A program made the position numbers and the translations under genes. From Acidobacteriota bacterium (GTDB lineage: Bacteria > Acidobacteriota > UBA6911 > RPQK01 > JAJDTT01), in NCBI GenBank assembly GCA_965209055.1, contig OZ242374.1, positions 3,808,001-3,872,000 of the forward strand: a stretch of DNA of 64,000 bases, given 5' to 3'. The notes beneath the pieces were generated by a model. The model saw only the letters and a program-made list of their open reading frames with translations, was not told the DNA's origin and searched no databases. Shown one piece after another: positions 29,016 through 43,078 of the stretch (positions are counted from its first letter, which is position 1; each line of letters starts with the position of its first letter).

Positions 29016-29254
29016 CAGTTCACGCAGTCGCGTTCTCGCGAGCGTGGAATTAGCGGGGTGGGTGGCCGTTGGATTCAGAGTAGGGGGAACCTGGACACGG
29101 CGCTGCCAAGCTGCAATGAAACGCAGTAAAAGGATTGGCGCGCATCGTCAGCATGATCCGGGCCTGAACTTTCCCTATTATTCTGGAGCTTCAGGAACAT
29201 AGGGCACTACTGATCAGGGATAAAAAACCAAAGCGCACATGAAAGGGAGCCAGG

Positions 29255-30040
29255 TTGATGATTAGAGGAAGTATGGCACTTGCGCTGTTTTGCATCGCGG
29301 CCCTTGCCGCTGGCGTGCCCGGACAGGAGGACTGGGAGGAAGGGCGCCGGCATTTCGGCAATGAGGACTACAAGCGCGCCCAAAAATCGCTGGAGCAAGC
29401 CGTGCGCAAGAATCCCGGCAGCTCGAAATTCCATTTCTGGCTGGGACTCGCCATGGGGCGAAGGGCCGAAAGTATGACGGGTTTCGGCCGTTTCCGGGCG
29501 ATGGGCCTGGCGAAGAAAGTCAAGGTGCAGTTCGAACGCGCCGTGCAACTCGACGGTTCGAATCTTGACGCTTTGGAAGCCCTCCAGAACTTCCACCTCA
29601 AAGCTCCCGGCATCGTGGGCGGAAACAAGGCGGAAGCTCGGAAGTTGGCCGATCGGATCAAACAGCTTGACAAGGCGCGAGGCGCCATCGCCTGGGCCCG
29701 CTGCTACAAACATGACAAGGACTTCGAGAATGCAGCCGCGCAGTATGCCTTGGCCCGCAAACTTGCTCCGGACAACACCGAATGCTTGGCTGAGCACGCC
29801 GCTTTCCTCTCCACGCGTCGCCAGCATGGGGAGAGCGACGAACTCTTCGACGCCGCGTTCGAACGGGATCCCGACAACCGCAAACTTTGGCTGACTGCGG
29901 CCAAATCGTGGATCGAAGCGAAGCGCTCATCCCTGTATCCGAGAGCGCGGAAGCTGCTGGAACGTTTTCTCGAGAACGCGAAATCGGTCCCGAACCTGGA
30001 CACCCCGTCTCAGGTCCGCAAGCTGTTGAAAAAGCTCTGA
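29255..30040 (+). CDS. Secreted tetratricopeptide-repeat protein
   Basis: Signal peptide; TPR-like helices; FERAVQLD...APGIVGG. Confidence 0.75.
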   Translation: MMIRGSMALALFCIAALAAGVPGQEDWEEGRRHFGNEDYKRAQKSLEQAVRKNPGSSKFHFWLGLAMGRRAESMTGFGRFRAMGLAKKVKVQFERAVQLDGSNLDALEALQNFHLKAPGIVGGNKAEARKLADRIKQLDKARGAIAWARCYKHDKDFENAAAQYALARKLAPDNTECLAEHAAFLSTRRQHGESDELFDAAFERDPDNRKLWLTAAKSWIEAKRSSLYPRARKLLERFLENAKSVPNLDTPSQVRKLLKKL

Positions 30041-30130
30041 GGGCCGGCAGAGGTGCAGTGCCCGACAGCGTACGTGCTCGTAGAGTCGGACTCCTGAAAT
30101 TTGAAGCGTGTAAGATTTTCGCCTGACACC

Positions 30131-30367
30131 ATGCGGATCGCCATCAACATTCCGACGTCGATTTTGAAAGAGTTGAAGAGCATTCAGACAAAGGAAGGGG
30201 GTACATTGGACGAACTGGTCACCGGATTCTTGGCCGAGGGGCTCCGCGCGCGCTACGCTGGCCAAACCGATCCTGAACTTGACTGGAAGAGCAAATCGAT
30301 GCGCGCACGCGTAGACTTGACCGAGAAGGAGGCTGTCTACGCGATCATCGCTGCCGACGCATCTTAG
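30131..30367 (+). CDS. VapB-like antitoxin
   Basis: MRIAINIPTSILKELK; C-terminal W..KSMRARVDLTEKEAVY; followed by VapC remnant. Confidence 0.75.
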   Translation: MRIAINIPTSILKELKSIQTKEGGTLDELVTGFLAEGLRARYAGQTDPELDWKSKSMRARVDLTEKEAVYAIIAADAS

Positions 30368-30519
30368 ACTACACCATTGAAATCGTTGCGCGTGGCAACT
30401 TGGTGCCGGACGGACACGTGGCAACGCTGGCAAGAGTACATGGCGTCCGTGCCATCTACACTCACGATCGGGACTTCAGGAAATTCCCGTTTCTCAAAGT
30501 GGTCGATCCGGTTGCATAA
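30364..30519 (+). pseudogene. VapC/PIN toxin remnant with internal deletion
   Basis: Frame reads LDYTIEIVARGNLVPDGHVATLARVHGVRAIYTHDRDFRKFPFLKVVDPVA*, the C-terminal third of a VapC. Confidence 0.75.
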
Positions 30520-30579
30520 CAGCCCGTGGTAAAAGTCGTCACGGCATTCGACCGTCCCTGCATCCCGGCGGGCTGCATT
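30519..30579. mobile_element. Left half of palindromic MITE, ending in attL core
   Basis: TA|ACAGCCCGTGGTAAAAGTC inverted relative to 40509-40527 (17/19); core CCGGCGGGCTGCATT at 30565-30579. Confidence 0.7.
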
Positions 30580-30733
30580 TTACGGGCTAGCCATGTCGTC
30601 TATTTATGTCCAGTACTGTACATAAGTGTCTGTTTATTATTGATTTATAAGGAGTTCGGGCGTCCGACGGTGTCCCATACCGATCCGCTTCGTCCCCTTG
30701 CATCCACGATATTATGGGGGTATAGTGGTGGGT

Positions 30734-31957
30734 ATGACACTTGTGAAACGTCCCCCGAAACGCAAGCCGCGCGGGCGGCATCCCCTCAACGCCCTGACAC
30801 CGGTCTTTGTCCGCAACGTGAACCAGGCCGGACGCTACTGCGACGGCCAGGGCCTCTATCTCGACGTCCGGCCCACGGGCAGCCGGGGCTGGATTCAACG
30901 CCTCACCATCCGTGGCCGCCGAGCCGAGCTCGGACTCGGTGGTTACCCCCTGGTCTCGCTCAAGGAAGCGCGCGAGAAGGCGTTCGCCAACCGCAAGCTG
31001 GCCCGCGAGGGAGGCGACCCCCGGGCCGAAAAGCGGGAGTCTGTGGCGATGCCCACGTTCGCGGACGCCACCCGGACGGTCTGGAAGCAACTGCGGCCGG
31101 GCTGGCGCTCCTCCCGCCATGCGCGGCTCTGGCTGGGGAGCCTGGAGCACCACGCCTTTCCCCGCATCGGTGAGATGCCGGTTGCGGAGGTGACGAGTGC
31201 CGACGTGATCGGAATCCTCGCTCCGATCTGGCACGAGAAGGCGTCCACCGCCCGGAAGCTGCGCCAGCGCATCCGCGCGGTCCTGGAGTGGGCCGTGGCG
31301 ATGGATCTTCGGCCCGACAACCCCTGTGACCGGATCGGCCCGGTGCTTGGTGCGCAGGGGAAGGTAGTGCGTCACATGCGGGCGTTGCCCCACCGCGAGG
31401 TGGCAGCCGCACTTGAGTCGGTGCAGGGGTCCAACGCGCGGCCGGTGTTGAAGCTGGCCTTCGAGTTCCTGGTGCTGACGGCGACACGCTCCGGCGAGGT
31501 CCGCAGGGCCGCGTGGACGGAGATCGACCGGGAGGAGGGAGTATGGACCATTCCGGCCGCGCGGACGAAGGGGAATCGGGAGCATCGGGTCCCGCTCAGT
31601 CGTCGTTCGTTGGAGATCCTCAATCAGGTGCGGTCGGTCGGTGGCGTTGGCCCATTCGTGTTTCCGAGCGTGCGCGGCAAGCCAGTCGGAAACACGGCGA
31701 TGGCGGAGCTGCTCCGGAGGTTGGGGATCGCGGCGGTACCGCACGGCTTCCGGTCGAGTTTCCGGGACTGGGCGGCGGAGGAGACGGATCATCCGCGCGA
31801 GGTGGCGGAGGCGGCGCTGGCGCACAAGGTGCGCAACCCGATCGAGGCGGCCTACCGGCGCACGGACCTGTTCGAGCGCCGGCGTCGGCTCATGGACGAA
31901 TGGGCGGACTACCTGGCTGGCGAGAGTCGAAACCCGGCGGCCGTCCGGCTCCGTTGA
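30734..31957 (+). CDS. P4-like tyrosine recombinase/integrase with N-terminal arm-binding domain
   Basis: DGQGLYL..GLGGYPLVSLKEARE; catalytic TATRSGE, HGFRSSF, LAH, AAYRR; upstream TGGGGGTATAGTGGTGGGTAT arm-type repeats. Confidence 0.95.
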   Translation: MTLVKRPPKRKPRGRHPLNALTPVFVRNVNQAGRYCDGQGLYLDVRPTGSRGWIQRLTIRGRRAELGLGGYPLVSLKEAREKAFANRKLAREGGDPRAEKRESVAMPTFADATRTVWKQLRPGWRSSRHARLWLGSLEHHAFPRIGEMPVAEVTSADVIGILAPIWHEKASTARKLRQRIRAVLEWAVAMDLRPDNPCDRIGPVLGAQGKVVRHMRALPHREVAAALESVQGSNARPVLKLAFEFLVLTATRSGEVRRAAWTEIDREEGVWTIPAARTKGNREHRVPLSRRSLEILNQVRSVGGVGPFVFPSVRGKPVGNTAMAELLRRLGIAAVPHGFRSSFRDWAAEETDHPREVAEAALAHKVRNPIEAAYRRTDLFERRRRLMDEWADYLAGESRNPAAVRLR

Positions 31958-32222
31958 TCCGCCGTGCGTAGAGCGCCAGCTTGAAAGCCTGCGCGAAGCC
32001 ATAGCCCGCCGATTCGCCGCCTGAAACCCACTCAGGCGCAGTCTTCGAGAATTCCCGAAAAAACAAGCCCGCCATTTCGCCTGTGTTGGCTTGGTGAGAC
32101 CGGGCCAAGGGTTCGGGATAGGCCGTTGGACGTTATCCTCTCCCATGCGGGGCATTCTCTCACGACAGACTGGAATTCTCCTTTCCCCATCTTCGCAGAG
32201 GCCTTCCCGCAGGGATCAATGA

Positions 32223-32331
32223 AGAAGTGAGCGACCCCCCCGCGCATGCCGCGCCGGTGTCCAACGGAGTGGAACACTGGCAGCGCTTGCGTGACGTGCG
32301 AGGCACGAAAACAGGGGGGTCGCTCACTTCT
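32223..32331 (-). other. Long branched hairpin HP1
   Basis: 18-bp stem AGAAGTGAGCGACCCCCC / GGGGGGTCGCTCACTTCT. Confidence 0.75.
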
Positions 32332-32639
32332 CCTACCCGGACTCCCCGTCCGGGCGCGCCTTCTCCCGAAAGGCGGGGACAAACCGAAGGGGCTCAACAG
32401 AATGGCGGAAAGGGAGCGTGTAACACTCGCTGCTCCGAGAGTGGAACACACCCCCCCATGTGTGTTTCACATCCTGGGACTTCGCCGGACAGGACCGACG
32501 GAGGTGGAACACGGCCCGGGAGCGGTCCGCCACATTGCCGTCAATGGGGCTTTCCGTACTCTTCGCAGCCCGTGGATCCACGACGTCCACAGGGTCCACC
32601 CGGGACCGGGCGTGCGCGGCCCCTCAGGCGCTCCACAAA

Positions 32640-33040
32640 CTTAACCCCGGTTCCGCTGGAATCCGGACCGAGAGCCAGGTCCGGCCCCAGTCGATGCGGA
32701 TGCGGTTTTGCGGGATGGGGGCGGTGGCCCGCTCCGGCCGGAGGTCGTCGCGGGCCACCGCGACGACGTGGAACGGTCCTTTCCGTGCGCGCAACGCGGC
32801 CCAGAGCCGGGCGTGCTCCGCCCCCCACGAGGGCAACTCCGAGTCGGTGTCTCGGCCGGGATCGACATAGACGAAGGTCGCCCGGTCCTCCTCCAGGGCC
32901 AGGGGGACCTTGCGGGGGAAGTACCGGCCCCGTCCCTGGGCGTGGCCGGCATAGTGGCGGCGGATCCGCCGCCGGGAAAGGCCGAGCGCCTCCAGCGCCT
33001 GCGACAGCTGCGTCACCTGCGGATCGACAGGGTTCATGGA
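32640..33040 (-). pseudogene. Fragment of a replication/relaxation-like mobile-element protein
   Basis: ALEALG...RYFPRKVPLALEEDRATFVYVDPG..WGAEHARLWAALR; paralogous remnant at ~36080-36360; family assignment is inference. Confidence 0.55.
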
Positions 33041-33118
33041 GAGGTGAAAGGGCTTCCCGGTGTCGATCTGGAGGTGTAAGGGAGACAATGGAGGCGAGTT
33101 ACATCGCGGAAGTCTTTC

Positions 33119-33420
33119 GACTTACACGAGCGATTTCCCCGATCTCTTTGACGCTCAAGCAGTTACGGACATATTCTCGGCTCCGCCGCGTCCGCACGGG
33201 GAAAATGGAAGTGGACGGGAGCGACCCCCCCTTTTTGCTGCCCGGTGCGGGCACGGCGGTGTTGCGCAACTTACGTTTGCGCAACACCGACTGGGGGGTC
33301 GCTCCCGTCGCATCTATCCCTGTCGGGAAGGCCTGAACTGACACCTGCGGTGTGGCCGGCTAGAGTCTAATGAGCGCCCGGTACGGCAACTTGGAACGGT
33401 CCCTCCATCATGCGGCCAAG
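33119..33420 (+). repeat. ~300-bp structured element, copy A (contains hairpin HP2, 33214-33309)
   Basis: Colinear similarity to 36470-36773; 17-bp outer stem, 13-bp inner stem. Confidence 0.8.
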
Positions 33421-33684
33421 GCGTTGCCGTAGACGGCCTCTGTAGGCCTGGAACGAACCGAAGAAAGGTTACGTAAACGCTCCCCGAACCAACACCCCAC
33501 CGCAACGATCCGCACCCGACGGCTCTCCGCCAGCCGGTCGATCTCATACGCGCGTCTTTATCATTATGTCAGTCATGGCCTCCAGGTCCGCCGTCGTGGA
33601 GCGAACTGCGGGACAGGGGCTCCAAAGGAGGTTTCATGAGTCCCTTGCTTCGGTCGAGGATCTTTTTGCAATCCCAGGCCAAAC

Positions 33685-34866
33685 TCAAGGCCCACCGTGT
33701 TGGTTGGACCGCCATTGATCGACCATCCAATCCATGACCCTGATGAACTCAGTCAATCGACCACCCCTCACGAGTTCCGAAAGGTTGATGCGAGGCCATC
33801 CTGTCATGCCTGCTCTTTTGAGCGAAAATCCAGGGATTCCAACGAGCTTCTTCCGAAGCGAATCCCTGACTTCCTCCCGGTCAAACGGTGCGCGACGCCG
33901 TAAGGCTGTCATGCAAAGCCACGTCGCCCTTGCGCTGCTTTCCATCTGGAGCAACGCTACCGATCCGGGAAGCCGGATCAGGCACTGTGGTCCGCGAGTC
34001 GTGGTTTCGAACGTGAGATCGAGGCCCATCTTCCTCGACCAAGTAAGGATCTCGCGCACTGCAAGCAATACGTTTCCGTCTCGGTCTTCGTGGGTACGAA
34101 CCGCATCCAGGAAGGTTTCTTCTTCCATGGCAACTCGTGGTGGTCTCGGTTGTGTTATCTGCTTGGTTTGCCTCCTCGCCTCCGTTTGTCCCGTAACTCT
34201 TGGGACCAAGACTCTGACTCCCTCGCCGGTAAACTGGTGAATCTCAACCGCAAGCGCCTCCGTAGGAGTCATCACCTCGTTGAGGAATTCAATGATCCGC
34301 CGCAACTCTGTGGGAATCGTATCCGCTACGAAAAGCAGCCGAATTCTCTTGTCGCGAAGATTGCTCTCTACGGCATCCCAGAAGTGATCCACGTAGGATT
34401 CATCCGCTTCGCTGGCGCGTCCGAGAAAATCCTGAAGTTTCAAACTCGCGTTCTCGCCGTCTCTTCTGCAACCTTCCTCGAATTGCGAACGAACCCACCC
34501 AACAGGCCAGTGCACTGTTGAGTTTGCCGCATAGTCAAGCATCTGGCCGACGACCTCTCGGCGGATCCTGCTGTCCGAACTCCGCTTAACCTCGACGAAC
34601 GTGGGGATGCCATCCTGATCGAGAAACAGGTGGTCGAGCGACCATCGGCCGGCACCCGTGTCGTCGTGGACGGTCATTTCGCGCGCGACTAGCAGAAACC
34701 TGCGGGGAAAATCGGGATTGATCTGTTCGCCGCCGAGGAGATCCGGATGCTTAGTCACGATTGTCTGTAGCAAGTCCTCGGAGTCGTACTCTGTCTCGTC
34801 CAATGGCGCAAGTTCCTTGTTCGGGTGCAGCAAAAAAATCCGGCCACTTTGCGTCATGGGAGTCAA
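33685..34866 (-). CDS. PD-(D/E)XK nuclease, NucS/EndoMS-like N-terminal domain
   Basis: SEDLLQ, SLDHLFLDQDGIPTFVEVKR, VVGQMLDYAAN. Confidence 0.75.
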   Translation of the reverse strand: MTPMTQSGRIFLLHPNKELAPLDETEYDSEDLLQTIVTKHPDLLGGEQINPDFPRRFLLVAREMTVHDDTGAGRWSLDHLFLDQDGIPTFVEVKRSSDSRIRREVVGQMLDYAANSTVHWPVGWVRSQFEEGCRRDGENASLKLQDFLGRASEADESYVDHFWDAVESNLRDKRIRLLFVADTIPTELRRIIEFLNEVMTPTEALAVEIHQFTGEGVRVLVPRVTGQTEARRQTKQITQPRPPRVAMEEETFLDAVRTHEDRDGNVLLAVREILTWSRKMGLDLTFETTTRGPQCLIRLPGSVALLQMESSARATWLCMTALRRRAPFDREEVRDSLRKKLVGIPGFSLKRAGMTGWPRINLSELVRGGRLTEFIRVMDWMVDQWRSNQHGGP

Positions 34867-35464
34867 TTCGTCCGCTGCCCGTCAAACTCTTCGGATCAAG
34901 CTCTGCGAGCAAGAGTCAGCTTGCCATGGTTTCGGCATTCTATCGGACCCAGAAGTGACAGGAAGCGCCGATCCCGGAGCGTCGCCCGCTTTTTCCCGGC
35001 GCCACCACCCGAAGCAGGTCCGCTCAAAGCACATGGCCTTTCCCTGCGGGGACGAGAAAGGGGCGGGGCTGTCCAACAACGCTTGTGAGGAAACGGACCA
35101 GCGCCACCCGAGAAAACGAATTCTCACGATACCGGAGAGGTTTTGACCGGACAAGAAGAAGAGACACACCAACTGAAAACCCCTGGCAAGAGAACGCCGA
35201 GTCTCCCAGGTCGAGCGGTATCCCCCGTGGAATATCAGAGATTTCCCACCGGGTGAGCCCTTTTGCTGACCCCACAATCAGCACCCCCCACGGAAGAAAG
35301 CCGGGCATTTGGCTGGAAGCACGACGAGACCGCACGGGTGTCCCATTCTGATGGGACGCGCGACGAACAGGAGCGCCCGGTTCACTGGCGGCAAGGAGAG
35401 CCGCCAGGGGTTCTGGCGCCACTTGGGGAGTCTGGGGGGATAGGTCCCCCCAGTCCGTCATCCG

Positions 35465-35653
35465 TTACGGCTTGCCGTAATTGTGGCCCAAGACGACGTC
35501 GGCCCGCCGTTCGAGGACCTCGACCACGGTCGCGGTCCAAGCCTCTCGGCCCCGCGTTGTGATCTGGACGGAGCAGCCGACTGGGCTTTCGGGGAGATTG
35601 CCGGTGTCTCCACGCGGCGACCCGGGGCTGCTGACGTGTCCGTTCACGGCCAC
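35465..35653 (-). pseudogene. Small beta-rich domain remnant, paralog of 38475-38735
   Basis: LPESPVGCSVQITTRGREAWTATVVEVLERRAD vs LPERLAGCSIEITPRRGDSGTATVTKVIERRGD. Confidence 0.55.
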
Positions 35654-35676
35654 GAAGGGCCAGAGACATCCGTTTC
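35638..35676 (+). repeat. 39-bp module-end repeat, copy A
   Basis: GTCCGTTCACGGCCACGAAGGGCCAGAGACATCCGTTTC; 33/39 match to 40286-40324. Confidence 0.7.
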
Positions 35677-35815
35677 ACCCCAAACTGGCGCCAGAAGTCG
35701 CCGCCGCGCCCTTTCCCTCTTCCGTTGCTTGGCTCAGAGACATTTTCCTTTAATCCCTTCCCCATCCCCCCGTTCGGTCTCCGCCCCCCTCCGGGTTGGC
35801 CGGTGCCATCGAGGG

Positions 35816-35983
35816 TCATTCAGGGCCGTTGGGATAGGCTTTGAAGACGCCGGCCAGCAGGATCGAGAACACGACAACGACGAACGTCACGACGACGAGC
35901 GCCACCAGGCCGACCCACTTGAGGATGTGCCAGACGACGGACCAAACCGTTCGCCAAGGCGCCCTCACGGTTTCGCCTTGCAT
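35816..35983 (-). CDS. 55-aa single-TM membrane peptide
   Basis: MQGETVRAPWRTVWSVVWHILKWVGLVALVVVTFVVVVFSILLAGVFKAYPNGPE*, preceded by GGAGGTGA SD; below ORF-track cutoff. Confidence 0.65.
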   Translation of the reverse strand: MQGETVRAPWRTVWSVVWHILKWVGLVALVVVTFVVVVFSILLAGVFKAYPNGPE

Positions 35984-36079
35984 ATCACCTCCAAGTCTAC
36001 GACGGCATTATGCCACTTCGAATGGGCTTTGCCGACCGATTGTCACCACGGGAGGACTCTGCCTGAGGCCGAAGGTGTC

Positions 36080-36360
36080 CGGATTCGAGCGGCGGGGCAT
36101 TCCCAAGAATCCTCATCCCCGACAAGTGTACTGCGGCGCGGTGGGGAGGACCCGGCGCTACTTGGCATTCAAACTGCCGATTGCCTTCGAGGCGGCCCGG
36201 ACCGTCTTCGTCCGTGTCGATCCCGGGCACTCGACAGACCAGGTCCTGCTCAACTTCTACGGTGGGGTGACGGCCGCCCTGAAGCGGGTCGTCGAGCTGC
36301 AACCAGCGGCGGAAGGTCGCTCCTTCCAGGTCGTGATCGGCGGTGAACGCACTTGGCATT
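36080..36360 (+). pseudogene. Second replication/relaxation-like protein remnant
   Basis: RQVYCGAVGRTRRYLAFKLPIAFEAARTVFVRVDPG matches the motif order of 32640-33040. Confidence 0.5.
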
Positions 36361-36469
36361 CGCAAATGCTGCGGGAGGCTCGTTTCGGCAGTGCGAAAAG
36401 GGGGTCACGTGGCCGATCCGGGAGTGTGAATGGGACATGCGCGGTGGATTCACAAAAAGCAGTCCCGAA

Positions 36470-36773
36470 GACTCACAAAGACGCTTTCCCCGATCTCCTT
36501 GCCTTTCATTCAGTAACGGCCACATTCCCGGCTTCGCCGTGCCCGATCCGGGAGATCGGAGGTAAACGGGAGCGCCCCCCCCCCTTTTTCCTGCCCGGTG
36601 CGGGTGCGGGGGTGCTGCGCAATTTACATCTGCGCCACACCCCCTGGGGGGGTCGCTCCCGTTTAAAATATCCTGACGGGAAGGTCAGAATTGACACCCG
36701 TGGCGTGGCGGAACAGAGCCTGATGAGCGCGCGGATCGGTAACTTGGAACGGTCCCTCTATCAGGCAGCCAAG
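36470..36773 (+). repeat. ~300-bp structured element, copy B (contains hairpin HP3, 36563-36665)
   Basis: Colinear with 33119-33420, with compensatory stem changes. Confidence 0.8.
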
Positions 36774-36893
36774 ATGCTTCGGAGTCGGCGAACCTATTAC
36801 TGTCCACACTGTGGCTATCAGGGCCGCCGCAGTCCCTGTCCTCGCTTCGGCGACAAGTGCGAACCCATCCCAGTCAGGAGAAAGAAACGCTGA
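36723..36893 (+). CDS. 56-aa zinc-ribbon-like small protein
   Basis: MSARIGNLERSLYQAAK...CPHCG...CPRFGDKC; truncated paralog MSARYGNLERSLHHAAKALP* at 33370-33432. Confidence 0.55.
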   Translation: MSARIGNLERSLYQAAKMLRSRRTYYCPHCGYQGRRSPCPRFGDKCEPIPVRRKKR

Positions 36894-37473
36894 GCTTCGA
36901 GCGAACGTGCGCCGCCGGCCGCGATCTGCTGGGCAATGCGCATTCCCCAGCACTATGGGCACTGCGAGAAGGTCACCGAGACCCTGTTGCACTGGATGGA
37001 GTCCCGGCCCTGTGTCCGGTGCGGCCGGGACATTCGCATGGTCGAGCCGCTGTGTGAGCGTCGTAGTCGGTGTCAGATGGTGGTCGCGCACTATCGGGAA
37101 CGGGCCGACCGGCGAGACGACGGCGGGCTGGGTCAGCCGGCCAGCGAGAAACAGGGAATCAGCTATCTCACCATCCCGGGACCGGAAGCGGAGGACCGTC
37201 TTGGACATGGCAGCGATCCGGTGGCGACACTTAGGGGAGCGTTCTGGCGGCAAGTCGATTTTGCATTCTTCGGGCGTGATACGCCTCCGGCGCTAAGGGC
37301 GACCGGGAAGTACCAGAGGCAAGGTAGGCTGTGATGATACCTGCGAATCATGTAGCCATGCTGTTTCCCAAAGGAGCCCGCTACCGACCCCCTGATCCGC
37401 TTCCTGATTGGGGTCCCTGCAGGCGATTGGCCGATCGTTTCCCAAGCTCCCGTGAACACAGTAGTCGTCTCTA

Positions 37474-37512
37474 TTGACACCAAATATATATCCATTATAA
37501 TCGATATAATGG
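37474..37512 (+). promoter_or_regulatory. Sigma70 promoter with overlapping palindromic operator
   Basis: TTGACA(37474)-16bp-TATAAT(37496); CCATTATA-N5-TATAATGG at 37492-37512. Confidence 0.7.
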
Positions 37513-37539
37513 TTTCATTGGAAATGGGGAGGGACTAGA

Positions 37540-38469
37540 ATGAAGACACTCCGTATGGACAATCCAACTTACGAGAGGCTGGCAAGTCATGCTCGACCAT
37601 TCGAAACTGAGAGTCAGGTCATCAACCGCGCTCTGGATGAACTCGATCAAAAGGCGAATACTTCTTCCTGGGCCAATGGTCCTGGGATGCATTCGGAAAG
37701 GCGGATCGATCCGCTACGCCTCCCTGACATGATGTTCACAAAGGTGTTAGATGCAAGCATTCATGGAAGGGTGGTCATACGGCCGAACTGGAACCGTCTG
37801 CTGCTGAGAATGGTTAGGTTGGCAAATGAGCACGCTACTAATTTCGATGAGCTCGTCCGCCTCTTTCCGATGACCAATATCGTCTCCGGGCGGAAGGTCA
37901 ACCAAGGTTTCCGCTACCTGTCCGACATCAACGTTTCAGTGCAAGGGCAACCTGCCAACTCAGCCGGTCCATCAATCGTGATGACTGCACAGAAACTCGA
38001 TATTGCCTTGAACATCGGTTTCATGTGGCGGGACAAGGAAGAAGCTGCATATCCTGGAGACCGCGGCCGTATCCTGATGACCGGCTCCACAATCTCCAGA
38101 GAGGACAGAATGCAATCGCCGCCGGAGCCGGTGAAGGAGCCCTCGCTCCTAATCCTAAGGGGAAAGCGCGATGGCATCGCTGTAACTGCACACGGTCGCG
38201 AAAACGAGCGAGGCTTCCTCGTACGGTCTGGTTCGATAGCAGCTAAGACCCAGACTCGATCGATTTCCAAGGGCTACTCTAAGTTGCGAGATGATCTGGT
38301 TCGACAGGGAGTCTTTAAGAGTGAGGGACTCGTGTACCGACTCGACCGAGACTATCTCTTTCGCTCACCCTCCGCCGCATCCAGTGTCCTTTTGGGTAGA
38401 GAAAGTAATGGGCTCACCGAATGGAAGGACCCCACCGGGAGAACACTGAAGGAGATCCAGGAGGACTGA
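37540..38469 (+). CDS. RHH/SeqA-N-like + SepA-family core + DUF4357 (RAMA-like) protein
   Basis: MKTLRMDNPTYERLASHARPFETESQVINRALD; C-terminal FLVRSGS...DYLFRSPSAASSVLLGRESNGLTEWKD..GRTLKE. Confidence 0.75.
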   Translation: MKTLRMDNPTYERLASHARPFETESQVINRALDELDQKANTSSWANGPGMHSERRIDPLRLPDMMFTKVLDASIHGRVVIRPNWNRLLLRMVRLANEHATNFDELVRLFPMTNIVSGRKVNQGFRYLSDINVSVQGQPANSAGPSIVMTAQKLDIALNIGFMWRDKEEAAYPGDRGRILMTGSTISREDRMQSPPEPVKEPSLLILRGKRDGIAVTAHGRENERGFLVRSGSIAAKTQTRSISKGYSKLRDDLVRQGVFKSEGLVYRLDRDYLFRSPSAASSVLLGRESNGLTEWKDPTGRTLKEIQED

Positions 38470-38474
38470 CTCAG

Positions 38475-38735
38475 ATGACCGTGGGCGCCCTCCCGACTCA
38501 ACCGCCGCCGGTTGAGCCGCCTGCGCCTGCGAATCGGAGTTGGAGTCATTACAAGCTCGAAGATGGCTCCTGGGATCCGTCCTACCTGAGCGACGCCGGC
38601 AAGCTCCCCGAGCGCTTGGCCGGATGCTCCATCGAGATCACACCCCGGCGGGGAGACTCAGGTACCGCCACCGTGACCAAGGTCATTGAGCGCCGGGGGG
38701 ATTTCATTCTGGTCCGTGACTCGGGCAAGGGTTAA
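38475..38735 (+). CDS. Small hypothetical mobile-element protein
   Basis: Paralog of 35465-35653. Confidence 0.5.
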   Translation: MTVGALPTQPPPVEPPAPANRSWSHYKLEDGSWDPSYLSDAGKLPERLAGCSIEITPRRGDSGTATVTKVIERRGDFILVRDSGKG

Positions 38736-38760
38736 ACTGGACTGAATTGGAGGGAAACCC

Positions 38761-38997
38761 ATGGGAGTCATGGTAAGCGAGATTTACGACGCGTTGATCG
38801 ATGCTGGCGCGACTGAAGCTAAGGCACGAGCGGCGGCAGAGGCCATCCCCATCAGTGACCGGTTAGCCACCAAACAGGACATAATCGAACTCAAAACCGA
38901 CATCGCCAGCCTGAAAGCAGATTCCAAGATCCTCAAGTATGTCTTCGCTCCTGCTGTCATCCTCTTGCTCCTCAAAATCGCATTCTTCTCCGGCTGA
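38761..38997 (+). CDS. DUF1640/CCDC90-like coiled-coil + TM protein
   Basis: YDALIDAGATEAKARAAAEA..LATKQDI, C-terminal TM, GGAGG SD. Confidence 0.7.
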   Translation: MGVMVSEIYDALIDAGATEAKARAAAEAIPISDRLATKQDIIELKTDIASLKADSKILKYVFAPAVILLLLKIAFFSG

Positions 38998-38998
38998 T

Positions 38999-39793
38999 AT
39001 GAAGCCGCCCACCGACGCTCCGGCCAACGTCCACGTGGACCCGGAATTCAAGAGTTGGACGCCGCCTGCAATCTGGTGGGAGCAACCCGAAAGGTTGTCG
39101 TCGTTGATGACCTTCTACCTGTGCCGTCCGGGGGGCATTGCCCGGAGTGAGGCAGTCTCGATAGTCAAGCCGTATATCAAAGAGCGCGGGTATAAAACTC
39201 GTAGCACGGTCGCGGATTGGAAGGCTCATGCAAAGTGGTGGACGGAACCGAAACGCCACCCTGAATTCATCTTCGACGAAAAAGCCTATGCGGCAGGAAC
39301 GCTCGTCTTGATTTCGGATGGTCCACTAGGACGGAAGGAACTCATCGAGCTAATCGAACGCCTACACCGGAACACCCGGAACAGGAGGGGACATTCTGGT
39401 ACTGTTCCGGTCAAGTATGAGCCAAAGGACTACGACATCGGGAATGGGAGCAAATACGTGTATGCCTACTACTATCCCAGATACCGCGAAAAAGGGGAGG
39501 CAGATTTCCTGATCAAGATAGGCCGCGCTAACGATTATCCAGAACGGATCAAAGCCCAAACAACGGAGATACCAGAAGAAGCCGAAGTCTCAGTAGTGTG
39601 GCGAACGGACCAGCCAGAGGCCGCAGAGAAGCTGTTACACGGACTTTTGACATTCCGTGGCAAACACGTGCTCGATGCTCCAGGCAGAGAATGGTTCCGG
39701 ACATCACCCCATGAAATCCGCCAAATTATTGAGTGTATTCAACCGGGTGTGAGCATCCAGAATATCCCGACGGCTGAGGGGATTCAGACCTAG
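38999..39793 (+). CDS. GIY-YIG nuclease, T5orf172/MUG113-like
   Basis: YVYAY, LIKIGRA, ERI..Q, AEKLLH, GREWF. Confidence 0.8.
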   Translation: MKPPTDAPANVHVDPEFKSWTPPAIWWEQPERLSSLMTFYLCRPGGIARSEAVSIVKPYIKERGYKTRSTVADWKAHAKWWTEPKRHPEFIFDEKAYAAGTLVLISDGPLGRKELIELIERLHRNTRNRRGHSGTVPVKYEPKDYDIGNGSKYVYAYYYPRYREKGEADFLIKIGRANDYPERIKAQTTEIPEEAEVSVVWRTDQPEAAEKLLHGLLTFRGKHVLDAPGREWFRTSPHEIRQIIECIQPGVSIQNIPTAEGIQT

Positions 39794-39951
39794 GACACCA
39801 GTCTTCTCCACTTTGGCCGATTCCCACCTGATTCCAGGCCCCGCAAGCCGCGTTTGTTTTGGCGGCCATGCAAAAGTGCAGTAAGGTGGCCGTCGATAAT
39901 GTCAAGCCTTGTGGCGTGGGCGCGTGGGTATCCAGGACCGAAGGTCCGTTG

Positions 39952-40284
39952 GTAACCGTTCGGTCAAGCCGTGGGGATCGACTTCCTGAGCCGGGCCTAC
40001 GGCCTGGCGCTCAATGGGGGGCGAGCACCTGACGAAACGGCACTCTTCCACCTCCAACGGGATGGAGGTTCAGAGTGGCCCTTGTGACCAATGATGTCGG
40101 AACGATGCGGTTGGATCGCGTGCCGGCAAGGACTTTGCCGCCGACGGTCACCTGCCGTTATCCTTTCCCAGGGAGGTCTTACCGCCGCGAAGAGTGGTTC
40201 AAGTCCGATAGCAACCCACCGGGAATTGATCACGCGGCGAGGATGACAACCGACCGTTCTTCCACGGCTTGACCTAACGATTAC
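39952..40284. mobile_element. Non-autonomous IS derivative (MITE) with GTAA ends, IS66-like
   Basis: TIR GTAACCGTTCGGTCAAGCCGTGG / CCACGGCTTGACCTAACGATTAC (21/23); flanking direct repeat GGTCCGTT at 39943 and 40285. Confidence 0.7.
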
Positions 40285-40285
40285 G

Positions 40286-40324
40286 GTCCGTTTACGGCCA
40301 CGAAAGGCCAATGGCATCCGATTC
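40286..40324 (+). repeat. 39-bp module-end repeat, copy B
   Basis: GTCCGTTTACGGCCACGAAAGGCCAATGGCATCCGATTC. Confidence 0.7.
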
Positions 40325-40413
40325 GATCAGGTGGACAGAATGGGGGGAATAGCGTCGCCGAAATATTCGTAACTCTTTTATGGTAAATGGTTTACGGAGA
40401 TTATGGGATCAGT

Positions 40414-40527
40414 CCGGCGGACTGCGTTGCGATTCGGGCACATACTCCCGGTATGCACCCGAATCGCGCCTTGTCCGGCGGGCGCAGGAACGGTCTCGGT
40501 GCTCGCGGGACTTTCACCACGGACTGT
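40414..40527. mobile_element. attR core plus right half of palindromic MITE
   Basis: CCGGCGGACTGCGTT; hairpin GCGATTCGGG..CATAC/GTATG..CCCGAATCGC (40429-40467); GACTTTCACCACGGACTGT|TA. Confidence 0.7.
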
Positions 40528-40561
40528 TAAGATCGTCCACCCAGGGTCCGGTGCTCTGTTT

Positions 40562-40582
40562 GACTTTCACGACGGGCTGCTA
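40562..40582. mobile_element. Orphan extra right TIR of the same MITE/IS family
   Basis: GACTTTCACGACGGGCTGC|TA. Confidence 0.6.
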
Positions 40583-40589
40583 GAATGAC

Positions 40590-41582
40590 GTGCCCATGAG
40601 ACATCGAGCACGAATTGGATTTCTAGTGACCCTTGCCCTTTTGCTGGTGTTCTCGGCGCCGGCCTGCGGGCCGGCAACGGAAGAAGACGGCCGCATGAAG
40701 ATCGCCGGGATGTTCATGCAGGAGGACCAGTTTTTCCGTCTGGTCCGGTTCGGTATGCAGCAGGCCGCCAAGGAGGAGGGTGCCGAGCTGCTGCTCTCCA
40801 CCGTGGACGGCAAGCCGGAAAAGGAGCTCCAACTCGTCAACACCTACATCGCCCGGCAGGTGGATGCCATCGTCCTCTCGCCCCTGAGCGCCACCGCCTC
40901 GGTCACGGCTCTGCGGCGGGCCCACGACGCCGGCATCCAAGTCATCGCCTACAACTCCACTGTCGAGGGCGGAATCCCCGCCGCCTTCATCGAGAGCGAC
41001 CAGTCCAACCTGGGCTCCCAGACCGGTGATGCGGCCCGCACATACATCGAGGAGAAACTGGGCGGACAGGCCCAGATCGCCATTCTGGCCTTCAAGTCGG
41101 CGCTGACGGAGCAGAGCGAAGCCCGGACCAACGGTTTCAAGAGCCGGGTCACCGATCTGCCCGGAGTCGAGATCGTGGCCGAGCAGGATGCCTGGCTGCC
41201 GGAGATGGGTATCCGCAAGGCGGGCGACATCCTCACGGCCAATCCCGGGATCGACCTGATCTGGTGCGCCAACGAGGGGGGAACGGTGGGCGCCGTCATG
41301 GCGGTCAAGAGCGCCGGACGGGGAGGCGAGGTCGTCGTCTTCGGGACCGACGTGAGCGACCAGATGCTTGGTTTCCTCCTGGCGGAGGACCAGATTCTGC
41401 AGGCCGTCACCGGCCAGAAGCCCTTCGAAATCGGCTACCAGTCCGTCAAAGCGGCCGTCGCCGTGATCCAGGGGAGGGAAGTCGAGAGCCACGTCTCCAT
41501 GTCCGGGGTGTTGCTTGAGCGCAGGGATCTCGAGATCGTTCGCGCCTACCGGGCCCGGCTCCAGGAACTCATCGCCAACTAA
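40590..41582 (+). CDS. Sugar ABC transporter substrate-binding protein (RbsB-like)
   Basis: Signal peptide; FF..V..GMQ, VDAIVLSP, R.NGF, IWCANE. Confidence 0.9.
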   Translation: MPMRHRARIGFLVTLALLLVFSAPACGPATEEDGRMKIAGMFMQEDQFFRLVRFGMQQAAKEEGAELLLSTVDGKPEKELQLVNTYIARQVDAIVLSPLSATASVTALRRAHDAGIQVIAYNSTVEGGIPAAFIESDQSNLGSQTGDAARTYIEEKLGGQAQIAILAFKSALTEQSEARTNGFKSRVTDLPGVEIVAEQDAWLPEMGIRKAGDILTANPGIDLIWCANEGGTVGAVMAVKSAGRGGEVVVFGTDVSDQMLGFLLAEDQILQAVTGQKPFEIGYQSVKAAVAVIQGREVESHVSMSGVLLERRDLEIVRAYRARLQELIAN

Positions 41583-41584
41583 CC

Positions 41585-43078
41585 GTGAATCCCGTCTCCA
41601 AGCCGATCCAGCTCGAAGCCCGCGGGATCCGGAAGGAATATCCGGGGACCGTCGCCCTCAAGGACGTCTCGGTCCGGTTCGAAGGGGGCAAGGTGCACGC
41701 GCTCATCGGCCGGAACGGCGCCGGGAAGAGCACCCTGGTCCGAATTTTGGCCGGCTCCACTCAACCCACTGCGGGCCAGGTCCTGCTTGACGGCGAACCC
41801 GTCGAGTTGAGATCGCCCGGCGACGCCTTCCAACGGGGGATCGCCACCGTCTACCAGGAGCTGAGCCTGGTGCCGGGGTTGAGCGTGGCCGAGAACATCC
41901 TCCTGGGACGGATGCCCCGAAACCGGGGTCCGTTCATCGACTGGGAGTCGGCCGCCGACCGGGCCCGCTCCGTGCTGGCCACCATGGACGTGGAGATGGA
42001 TGTTGACGAGCCGGTGGGCCGGTTGGGCTTCGCCCAGCAGCAGACGGTGGAGATCGCCAAGGCCATGTCCTTCCGGCCTTCGGTCCTGATGCTGGACGAG
42101 CCGACGTCGGGACTGGCGCGGCACGAAACCCGCAGCCTCTTTCGGCTCGTGCGCCAACTGGCGGAACAGGGAGTAGCCATCCTCTACATCTCCCACCGGC
42201 TCCAGGAGCTGAGGGAGATCGCCGACCGGGTCACCGTCCTTCGGGACGGCAATCACGTGGCGACAGTTGAGATGGAGGAAACCACGGACGGGGAGATCGT
42301 TCACTACATGTTCGGGGAGACCGTGCAGAAGGAGCGTCCCGCCGATCTCCTGGCCGGCCGGGAGCCGGTGCTGCAGGTTCGGGGACTGTCCCGGGGCGAG
42401 GAATTCCAGGACGTGAATCTGACCCTTCACCGGGGAGAGATCCTGGGGATCGCCGGCATGCTGGGATCGGGACGCACCGAGTTGCTCAAGTCGATCTTCG
42501 GAGCCCTGCCGTTCAATCATGGTGACATTCTCGTCTCCGAGAAGACTTACGAAAAAGTTTCTCCTTCCGAAATGAAGAATCTTGGTCTCGGGTTCGCCCC
42601 CGAGGACCGGAAACAGGAGGGACTGGTCCAGACCCAGAGCATCCGGTCCAACCTCTGCCTGGCCAGTCTGGACCGGATTTCGAGTCGGGGATTCCTGAAC
42701 CGGCGGCGGGAGCGGAGACTGATCCGGGAGCAGGTGGATCGCCTGCACATCAAGGCCCCCGACGTGGAGGAGGCCGTCTCCTCGCTCAGCGGAGGCAACC
42801 AACAGAAGGTTGTGGTGGGAAAGTGGCTCGGCACCTCATTGCAGGTGCTGCTCCTGGACGAGCCCACGCGCGGGATCGATCTCCAGGCCAAGCAGCAGAT
42901 CTTCCAATTGATGTGGGACCTGAGCCGCCAGGGGATCGCCGTACTGTTCGTCTCCAGCGAGCTTGAGGAACTGGTGGAGGTGTGCCACCGTATCCTGGTC
43001 ATGAAGCACGGCCGGATCGAGCAGGAAGTCCGGCCCGAAAACACCACCGCCGACCAACTCTTCGTCCAGTGCATGTAA
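41585..43078 (+). CDS. Sugar ABC transporter ATPase (RbsA-like, two ABC domains)
   Basis: GRNGAGKST, LDEPTS, LSGGNQQKV, LDEPTRGID. Confidence 0.95.
   Translation: MNPVSKPIQLEARGIRKEYPGTVALKDVSVRFEGGKVHALIGRNGAGKSTLVRILAGSTQPTAGQVLLDGEPVELRSPGDAFQRGIATVYQELSLVPGLSVAENILLGRMPRNRGPFIDWESAADRARSVLATMDVEMDVDEPVGRLGFAQQQTVEIAKAMSFRPSVLMLDEPTSGLARHETRSLFRLVRQLAEQGVAILYISHRLQELREIADRVTVLRDGNHVATVEMEETTDGEIVHYMFGETVQKERPADLLAGREPVLQVRGLSRGEEFQDVNLTLHRGEILGIAGMLGSGRTELLKSIFGALPFNHGDILVSEKTYEKVSPSEMKNLGLGFAPEDRKQEGLVQTQSIRSNLCLASLDRISSRGFLNRRRERRLIREQVDRLHIKAPDVEEAVSSLSGGNQQKVVVGKWLGTSLQVLLLDEPTRGIDLQAKQQIFQLMWDLSRQGIAVLFVSSELEELVEVCHRILVMKHGRIEQEVRPENTTADQLFVQCM

Follow-up and report, generated by a model that had tools for sequence, protein, structure and literature searches.

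A P4-type integrase island lies within a multicopy palindromic miniature transposable element in an acidobacterial genome

Our analysis concerns an integrase island, and the small repeat that it splits, in a 64,000-nucleotide stretch of the genome of an Acidobacteriota bacterium (bases 3,808,001-3,872,000 of a single 6.08-Mb contig, 62.8% G+C), which we call the window. P4-type integrases usually target tRNA genes; the island described here, island A, lies inside a miniature inverted-repeat transposable element (MITE). The anatomy of its junctions, the occupied and unoccupied copies of the MITE and the integrases of its relatives lead us to propose, with a probability of roughly 85%, that a P4/CP4-57-type tyrosine integrase inserted a 9,849-bp defence island site-specifically into the left arm of this multicopy element. 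In the window's own genome (G000) the same internal position of the MITE is occupied by five islands and at least two remnants, while empty copies exist. In the order of events that we envisage, a MITE from an IS5/IS1182-like insertion sequence (IS) would first have landed on a TTAA where a PIN-like reading frame ends; recombination between island and MITE would have followed, at an overlap of 7 bp, CCGGCGG, which belongs to a near-palindromic core of 15 bp; and sister islands, carrying different defence cargo, would fill several equivalent bacterial attachment sites (attB) in other MITE copies.

Results

A MITE split by the island

The MITE of the window spans 30520-40526 and measures 158 bp proper (CAG...CTG) when the 9,849-bp island that splits it is set aside. 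Its left part (30520..30571, + strand) consists of CAGCCCGTGGTAAAAGTC as inverted repeat, the left arm and an overlap of 7 bp, and its right part (40421..40526, +) the central hairpin (approximately 40430-40468), the right arm and the right inverted repeat. On an nhmmer profile made from 9 intact copies and run against the genome, the left part matches positions 2-63 and the right part positions 46-164, so that together they make up exactly one element with about 18 nt duplicated. The terminal inverted repeats are 19 nt long (30519-30537 versus 40509-40527, with 2 mismatches; 3 matches in the window versus 0 in shuffled windows), and symmetry extends into the arms, where GACCGTCCCTGC (30550-30561) pairs with the reverse complement of 40484-40495. 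The element is bordered by a target duplication, with ATAA at 30516..30519, overlapping the stop codon of the weak PIN-like frame, and TTAA at 40527..40530; the empty site is TTAA. As single-stranded DNA, an intact MITE copy is predicted to fold into one long hairpin (-53.8 kcal/mol, z = -6.55), a stability that 0 of 200 shuffled sequences attained. An earlier note on this DNA had described 15-bp direct repeats at the island flanks and an element of about 160 bp with TA on both sides, 19-bp terminal inverted repeats, arm symmetry and a central hairpin. The direct repeats, the inverted repeats, the symmetry and the hairpin are all in the sequence, and the element itself stands at 158 bp; the TA has to be replaced, by a real duplication of 4 bp that is TTAA-like.

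The genome holds 12 well-conserved intact copies of the MITE, 6 divergent full-length matches and many halves (66 nhmmer matches to the profile, both strands counted). Each of the eight other genomes of the genus has at least 20 matches, with up to 306 first-look candidates, and none of six genomes of the sister genus was matched. The target duplication is 4 bp long in the intact copies and exact in 7 of the 12 (TTAG, TTAA, CTAA, TTGA, TTAA, CTAG, TTGA); in the remaining readable copies the two 4-bp sequences differ by one base, and empty sites show a single TTAA or GTAA. The element is thus small, non-coding and multicopy, has inverted repeats of 18-19 bp and a target duplication, and is polymorphic in its insertion among relatives, as befits a MITE. 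A partner IS of 1,477 bp (G000 4557525-4559001) has the same ends as the MITE, CAGCCCGTGG(G/C)AA, and encodes a DUF772-domain transposase of IS5/IS1182 type with one in-frame stop; elsewhere in the genome there are only two partial copies of it. The MITE, which is confined to the genus, derives from an IS5/IS1182-like element. The third inverted-repeat-like match in the window, at 40562-40580, was rejected as a piece of the MITE: it is a promoter-like TTGACT..TAGAAT kept at the locus in the genus genomes inspected. The sequence there, TTGACTTTCACGACGGGCTGCTAGAAT (40559-40585), has the shape of a -35/-10 promoter, stands before a periplasmic-binding-protein gene (40590-41582) and matches the MITE inverted repeat at 16 of 19 bases; this promoter-like site is conserved at the locus in G001, G004, G006, G007 and G008.

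The integrase and the island junctions

The integrase gene (30734..31957, +) encodes 407 aa from its ATG, within an open frame that begins with a TTG at 30698. Three Pfam domains, all above curated cut-offs, follow one another in the product, namely Arm-DNA-bind_3 (PF13356, 7.6e-19), Phage_int_M (PF22022, 1.9e-23) and Phage_integrase (PF00589, 1.5e-16), which correspond to the N-terminal arm-DNA-binding, central SAM-like and C-terminal catalytic domains of the P4/CP4-57 architecture. Matches in the PDB are to CP4-like integrase domains and cover the N-terminal and central domains only, and the R, K, HxxR, H and Y residues were read by eye in the translation (ATRSGE, TKGNREHRVPL, HGFRSSF, LAHK..AAYRR). 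In this genome 16 full-length paralogues reach at least 60% identity, and four of them are 93-96% identical to the integrase of the window.

The direct repeats that flank the island are CCGGCGGGCTGCATT (30565..30579, +) at the left attachment site (attL) and CCGGCGGACTGCGTT (40414..40428, +) at the right one (attR), identical at 13 of 15 positions. The part of this repeat common to all islands is the 7-bp CCGGCGG, at 30565-30571 in attL and 40414-40420 in attR, which we take as the probable crossover overlap; the distance between its two copies is 9,849 bp (island 30572-40420), and at a contig joint of 30564 to 40414, 7 letters fit either side. Inside the 15-nt repeat, attL has G..A and attR has the MITE's A..G, which fits a crossover inside CCGGCGG, left of these polymorphisms. 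At neither island junction is there a tRNA or tmRNA (ARAGORN; Rfam over 29500-41500), as the earlier note had held, and three weak Rfam matches in the same interval, all under their gathering scores, were treated as chance.

Between the overlap and the integrase gene lies an integrase-proximal arm (P'; 30572..30733, +) with GTCCAG-type repeats and the integrase promoter region, which is conserved in all integrase clades even where the cores differ. At the other end, an integrase-distal arm (P; 40250..40413, +) is homologous to the distal arms of the sister islands and remnants described below (B-E, F and I) and contains two GTTTACGG motifs, at 40290 and 40390, as candidate arm sites. The window contains this motif 3 times where 0.79 occurrences are expected, a count that 8 of 100 shuffled sequences also attain; its assignment as an arm site of the integrase is suggestive only.

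The same MITE position is occupied by sister islands

Four further islands, with integrases 93-96% identical to that of island A, have each split another MITE copy at the same CCGGCGG, with the core duplicated: B at 571-580 kb, C at 4,957-4,969 kb, D at 68-84 kb and E at 2,474-2,485 kb of G000. Islands A-E measure 8.9-16.2 kb and split the MITE at profile positions of about 42-63. Two remnants, F (4556128-4560882, locus L006) and I, carry the same distal arm in a MITE that is likewise split at this position, but have no integrase of this family; remnant F holds the only full-length copy of the partner IS, the one with the in-frame stop. Because the MITE is multicopy, the genome would offer the integrase many equivalent attB sites. 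Beyond these cases, an isolated right-hand junction like that of island A (distal arm, core and right MITE half) was seen at 983069-983181 of G000; the 9 bases that follow its MITE half, TTAAGATCG, are the same as those behind the MITE of the window, and part of the attR region of island A may have been duplicated here.

All the islands share a 2.8-kb integrase end and a short distal arm, with a backbone of integrase, R2 repeats (a structured repeat described below) and the gene ORF154, and they differ in cargo. Island A has matches to PDC-S11, PDC-S14 and PDC-S57 and island B a PDC-S26 nuclease, the PDC families being candidate defence systems only; island C carries type I hsdR/S/M and PrrC (PADLOC 1.5e-99), island E a type ISP enzyme with a PD-T4-6-like kinase, and island D, in place of such systems, two large leucine-rich-repeat (LRR) proteins and a methyltransferase. 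Anti-phage systems, known or candidate, dominate the cargo, which marks these elements as putative defence islands. In island C the homologue of the PrrC-type anticodon nuclease stands between hsdS and hsdM (L003 6440-7576), which is the classic prr arrangement.

The flanks of A, C and E are unique. Islands B and D lie within a segmental duplication, with outside flanks 97.0% and 99.3% identical, and the islands themselves are 93.6%, 88.6% and 80.5% identical over their shared segments; because they differ more than their flanks, the duplicated MITE would have been filled twice, or one island replaced. The duplication is inverted (66.9-85.0 kb, L004, and 570.5-581.4 kb, L002), with at least 1.5 kb on each side of the MITE 97-99.3% identical; the L004 copy holds a 16.2-kb island with the LRR proteins and the L002 copy an 8.9-kb island with the PDC-S26 nuclease. 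The MITE halves beside different islands are different variants, each of which is found also in a different intact copy, and the duplications round the islands read ATAA/TTAA in A, ATAA/TTAA in C, TTAG/CTAG in D and CTAG/CTAG in E. The flanks, the divergence of B from D and the variants of the MITE halves all argue that the insertions were probably independent events.

Relatives and empty sites

In other genomes of the genus, related integrases adjoin the same element. In G007 the integrase (86-88% identical) stands beside a left MITE half and in G004 (86%) beside a right one, both at the same core position, and an integrase fragment in G008 (91%) adjoins a right MITE half. The earlier note had inferred that this integrase uses a MITE as its attB and that the element, if multicopy, gives many landing sites. 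The five islands and two remnants at one position, the intact and divergent copies in this genome and those in all eight genomes of the genus, and the placement of the integrases of B-E, G007 and G004 strongly support this inference.

Locus A was ancestrally empty. In G001 it has neither MITE nor island, and the empty site reads GGTTGCGTAAGCG; in G004 the flanks lie close together; and a contig of the public run X23 joins 30515 to 40527 directly, leaving a single TTAA. G008, the closest relative, has the MITE at locus A, where its contig ends inside the element. At loci A and E, as at the locus of an intact MITE at 1,238 kb, the MITE is missing in related genomes.

The public-run data consist of assembled contigs only, which break at the MITE and from which rare circles and other rare forms are dropped. 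The runs that hold the stretch of the window are mostly labelled as sponge metagenomes. A joint of 40414-40420 to 30565-30571, as expected of a circle, was found in none of the contigs of four runs over 28500-42500, a result that carries no weight for or against excision since rare forms are dropped. Two joints, 30564 to 40414 and 30562 to 40417, were rejected as locus-specific records of a restored MITE, their shorter side being 19-23 nt, as expected from any intact copy, and an X1 joint of 40530 to 30516 was rejected as a circle, being expected from two abutting MITEs. The cargo bins of island A have zero cover in the contigs of X1, X3 and X23, which carries no weight either way.

Core sequence and orientation of insertion

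The core is a near-palindrome of 15 bp with the form CAGnCCGnCGGnCTG, in which only the central base is asymmetric within the 7-bp overlap. In island A the integrase stands beside the left MITE half and in B-E beside the right half, and the arms of A and of B-E, though homologous, point opposite ways with respect to the MITE. On the strand of the integrase gene the overlap reads CCGGCGG for A and G007 and CCGCCGG for B-E and G004, a correlation between 7-mer and orientation that follows from the sequence of the MITE itself. That only the central base of the overlap is asymmetric would account for islands in both orientations; either the attachment sites of the islands (attP) would differ at the central base between the two orientation classes, or a central mismatch would be tolerated. 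An integrase tree of 26 rows, from which copies with internal stops and partial copies were excluded (the 3.14-Mb copy of G000, L022-L025, L030, L031, L034, L035, L037, L039, L042 and L043), nests A within the B-E clade (100/99) and makes the integrases of G007 and G004 sisters (98/90). This placement indicates that orientation switched at least twice between very close enzymes.

The occupied MITE copies all have a core of CCCGG(C/A)GG type. Five of the 12 aligned intact copies share this core, exactly CATCCCGGCGGACTG, and none of six intact copies with the CAGGCGCGG variant is occupied; the core type may thus track occupancy, on counts that are small and from copies that are not independent.

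Discussion

Weighing the evidence

Our analysis demonstrates the anatomy of the split element, the presence of unoccupied sites and the repeated filling of a single internal position of a small palindromic element in one chromosome, and the best account of that pattern is site-specific integration by the P4-type enzyme that every complete island encodes beside one of its junctions. We infer the activity of the integrase, the exact positions of cleavage, excision and travel between cells from sequence comparison, and several observations weigh against the proposal. Recombination, excision and transfer are all deduced from anatomy; tyrosine integrases do not usually insert in both orientations, and the explanation offered above is itself conditional. 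A second CCGGCGG, in the right arm of the MITE (context TGTCCGGCGGGCGC), is used by no observed island, so that the 7-mer alone does not explain the choice of site. The core copies of island B differ at 2 of 12 positions, the central base included, and no excisionase or AlpA-type gene was recognised among the genes of island A in Pfam/NCBIfam-type scans. Finally, among eight genomes of the genus no orthologous site with the MITE only was found at loci A, C or E. A control qualifies this last point: the island-free intact MITE at 1,238 kb is also missing, in 7 of 7 assessable genomes of the genus, and because it is equally absent the missing MITE-only sites are uninformative and the MITE insertions simply young.

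A history in which the integrase acted once or twice long ago, and the islands were later copied between MITEs or duplicated regions by homologous recombination or gene conversion, is in our judgement improbable. Homology for such exchange could be supplied by the 2.8-kb backbone and by the 52- and 106-bp MITE flanks, yet 50-100 bp is short for efficient general recombination, and site-specific integration predicts both the exactly duplicated core of each island and the two orientations. The large duplication that contains B and D, and the mosaic of cargo between islands, are readily accommodated by this history; the occurrence of the same junction in other species with diverged integrases is not. 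The five integrases of this genome, moreover, are full-length open frames with 93-96% identity, which suggests that they have been kept functional.

It is highly improbable that the MITE ends and the island moved as a unit to TTAA-like sites, in the manner of a large non-autonomous transposon, driven by the transposase of the partner IS after one or two integrations. The earlier note had raised the related idea that a DDE transposase acting on the MITE ends could move the whole 10 kb. Such composite transposition would explain why the inverted repeats and 4-bp duplications round the islands are intact or nearly so and why, at loci A and E, relatives lack both MITE and island, and a partner IS with the same inverted repeats does exist; but the only full-length copy of that IS has an in-frame stop, with two partial copies elsewhere, and the island-free control MITE is equally absent from the relatives. 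Even islands with the closest integrases differ in their orientation within the MITE, and the MITE halves differ between islands and share their variants with different intact copies, which argues for separate events and against the idea of the note. The islands at B and D, too, diverge far more than the duplicated flanks around them. That unrelated fragments resemble one another by chance, or that the contig was mis-joined at repeats, has a negligible probability, since, even though short-read contigs break at the MITE repeat, the genome is a single 6.08-Mb contig, X19 contigs cover the island (13-16x, with 16-19x over the flanks), their listed pieces showing 0 differences, and the architecture recurs five times here and in other genomes.

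Relation to known systems

Site-specific integration into the MITE would place these elements beside the P4/CP4-57 islands, which they resemble in the architecture of the integrase, its position beside one junction, the short flanking direct repeat and a variable, defence-rich cargo behind a conserved integrase end. They differ in that the target is an internal site of a MITE rather than a tRNA, tmRNA or protein gene, and in that each genome holds many equivalent attB sites, several of them filled at once and in both orientations. The use of dispersed palindromic repeats as a neutral multicopy target is familiar from IS1397, IS621 (IS110-type) and the Neisseria Nf prophages in dRS3; such elements rely on DDE or DEDD transposases and not on a tyrosine integrase with arm sites. 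The integrase of PLE, an anti-phage island of Vibrio cholerae, is a serine recombinase, and the REP13E12 repeats of Mycobacterium tuberculosis form a family of only a handful of copies. PLE integrates site-specifically into VCR, a repeat of about 124 bp with more than 100 copies, and its transductants land beside different genes (PMC5481146). The likeness lies in an anti-phage island parked in a multicopy repeat; the VCRs are integron attC sites in one superintegron array, whereas the targets here are dispersed transposon relics. The phiRv1 element of M. tuberculosis has its attB within the multicopy REP13E12 repeat and uses a serine recombinase (PMC9317374). The present case differs in having a tyrosine integrase, and REP13E12 is not a MITE.

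With integrons (IntI/attC) the islands share a recombinase of the tyrosine family and many imperfectly palindromic, structured sites beside variable cargo, and the long hairpin of the MITE and the compensatory pair changes of R2 are alike in kind to integron sites. They are unlike integrons in that the integrase is P4-type and not IntI, R2 is dispersed in both orientations and does not form an attC array, and whole islands of 9-16 kb are inserted here rather than single promoterless cassettes; use of a folded single strand is, in the present case, a possibility. Islands that use a multicopy repeat as attB are therefore known already, in PLE/VCR and phiRv1. The differences here are a P4-type tyrosine recombinase, a dispersed MITE, at least five sister islands in one chromosome and two orientations. 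We found no description of a tyrosine integrase with a MITE as attB in the literature searched, whose coverage is incomplete for subscription journals, and none of the passages that a term search reached in PMC11410982 concerned the present element.

A dispersed MITE used as attB would supply many neutral landing sites and allow several sister defence islands to coexist in one chromosome. Islands are usually mapped by way of tRNA genes, so islands parked in repeats would be missed by standard island finders, and in short-read assemblies they would fall into contig breaks. They also create long dispersed homologies able to drive rearrangement and the exchange of cargo. The two orientation classes, one overlap base apart, offer a natural experiment on how asymmetry of the overlap sets the direction of tyrosine recombination, and builders of genetic tools for relatives in uncultured lineages might take an interest in a small integrase whose target is short, defined and multicopy.

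A structured repeat accompanies the wider integrase family

The structured repeat R2 measures about 209 nt, begins with GCCTTCCCGCAGGG, occurs in approximately 63 copies in this genome and has no Rfam match. Its long stem, GACGGGAGCGA...TCGCTCCCGTC, shows compensatory changes: in an alignment of 58 rows the long-stem pairs switch between CG and AU (37 and 14 rows) and between GC and UA (47 and 10 rows), and in a 22-row model alignment 10 of 40 predicted pairs have compensatory changes. Island A contains a variant, R2-like form with the same beginning (32196..32415, +; 70.9 bits with covariance model R1) and two full-length copies (33130..33337, -, 226.8 bits; 36481..36690, -, 209.7 bits). With the covariance model, R2 is found about 0.05-1.4 kb downstream of the integrase in the window, where it has 3 copies, as well as in islands B-E and other Acidobacteriota, and weaker matches lie downstream of the integrase in loci of Versatilivoraceae, Palauibacter and Gemmatimonadota. 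The repeat is dispersed, in either orientation, and stands beside nearly every integrase of the family; the genes downstream of it are varied and often defence-like, and a zinc-ribbon gene often diverges from the core end of the repeat. At three loci (L088, L101 and L102) direct copies of the core stand on both sides of the integrase cassette, with R2 following. A tRNA-Val(tac) of 85 nt called by ARAGORN at 33235-33319, the only such call in the window and internal to the island, falls in the inner hairpins of R2 without Rfam support and is very likely a false positive. Elsewhere in G000, at 3.918-3.920 Mb, lies an R2-type island whose flank is not conserved, 3 of 8 genus genomes giving only short matches of 74-77%.

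Junction sequences were inspected at 39 integrase loci whose integrases are 59-87% identical to that of the window and whose labels are Acidobacteriota, Longimicrobiales and other Gemmatimonadota, Candidatus Versatilivoraceae, Candidatus Palauibacter, Latescibacterota, Aminicenantes, Gammaproteobacteria and Vicinamibacterales. The MITE core stands at 2 of these junctions, CCTTCCCGCAGGG or a near variant at 16 and CGTTCCCGCGGGG at 7, and at 14 no core was recognised. In the other paralogues and most relatives a different sequence occupies the equivalent place, counted from the conserved integrase-proximal arm. CCTTCCCGCAGGG, the junction core of the non-MITE sister integrases, equals the first 13-14 nt of R2. 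As the MITE core TCCCGGCGG resembles TCCCGCAGG, use of the MITE looks like a modest retargeting within one genus. Close relatives of the integrase were found in metagenome-assembled genomes (MAGs) labelled Acidobacteriota, and enzymes 75-87% identical to it occur in MAGs of several phyla (loci L074-L118, labelled Acidobacteriota, Longimicrobiales/Gemmatimonadota, Candidatus Palauibacter, Candidatus Versatilivoraceae, Latescibacterota, Aminicenantes and Gammaproteobacteria), of which some bin labels may be wrong. Identity at this level across phyla suggests recent exchange between very distant bacteria and points to an active route by which defence genes pass between Acidobacteriota, Gemmatimonadota and other phyla.

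R2 may serve as a target, as an attC-like site, as an arm or as a leader RNA, and the sequence comparisons are compatible with any of these. One broader scheme would join it to the integrase and the MITE, and taken whole we regard this scheme as rather unlikely. It holds that a lineage of P4-type integrases circulates in mostly sponge-associated bacteria of unrelated phyla and is specialised on short near-palindromic cores in multicopy structured repeats of its hosts; that R2 may act as an attC-like site whose use depends on folding, or as an RNA or DNA cofactor, and with the integrase would form an integron-like system of cassette exchange; and that targeting of the MITE would be a recent retargeting, in one acidobacterial genus, to the similar TCCCGGCGG, with the central base setting or freeing the orientation. 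The association of R2 with the integrase across phyla is the lead most worth following.

Other features of island A and its surroundings

A conserved G+C-rich stretch of 1.4 kb in island A contains two inverted R2 copies around ORF154 (32624..33088, -), a backbone gene kept in islands A, B and D. Its family has 91 relatives, none with a Pfam domain; ORF154 itself appears N-terminally short, the other members having 219-265 aa with an extra N-terminal region and an invariant ATFVYVD..TDSEL. A diverged stretch paralogous to ORF154 lies on the opposite strand beside the second full-length R2 (36018-36426, +). From the core of each full-length R2 copy diverges a small zinc-ribbon gene: by its sequence, the first is a truncated copy of 20 codons (33370..33432, +), and the second encodes a 56-aa protein (36723..36893, +; CPHCG...CPRFG) with a weak CoiA_N match only. 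Pfam, NCBIfam and PADLOC gave nothing usable for ORF154, the zinc-ribbon frame and several other open reading frames, and no primase or capsid-hijacking genes were recognised in the island.

The cargo proper begins with a 393-aa protein (33685..34866, -) that matches the candidate defence family PDC-S11 (PADLOC E = 3.7e-12) and has no Pfam or NCBIfam match, its nuclease-like motif having been read by eye only. It is followed by a protein whose N-terminal region is of the SepA family and whose C-terminus is DUF4357 (37540..38469, +), of the candidate defence family PDC-S14, and by a T5orf172/MUG113-domain protein (38939..39793, +) that matches PDC-S57.

The PIN-like frame at the edge of the MITE has a PIN match with E = 0.0036, below the curated cut-off. 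In the interval 30101-30519 it has no in-frame start over its last 77 codons and is preceded by an 88-codon open frame in another register, so the PIN-like gene may be frameshifted; an X1 contig has 22 extra bases following 30062. More widely, G000 is unusually rich in dispersed repeats, among them a further family of about 1 kb, with approximately 25 copies at 89-97% identity, which lies at 783-791 kb and elsewhere and near some copies of R2.

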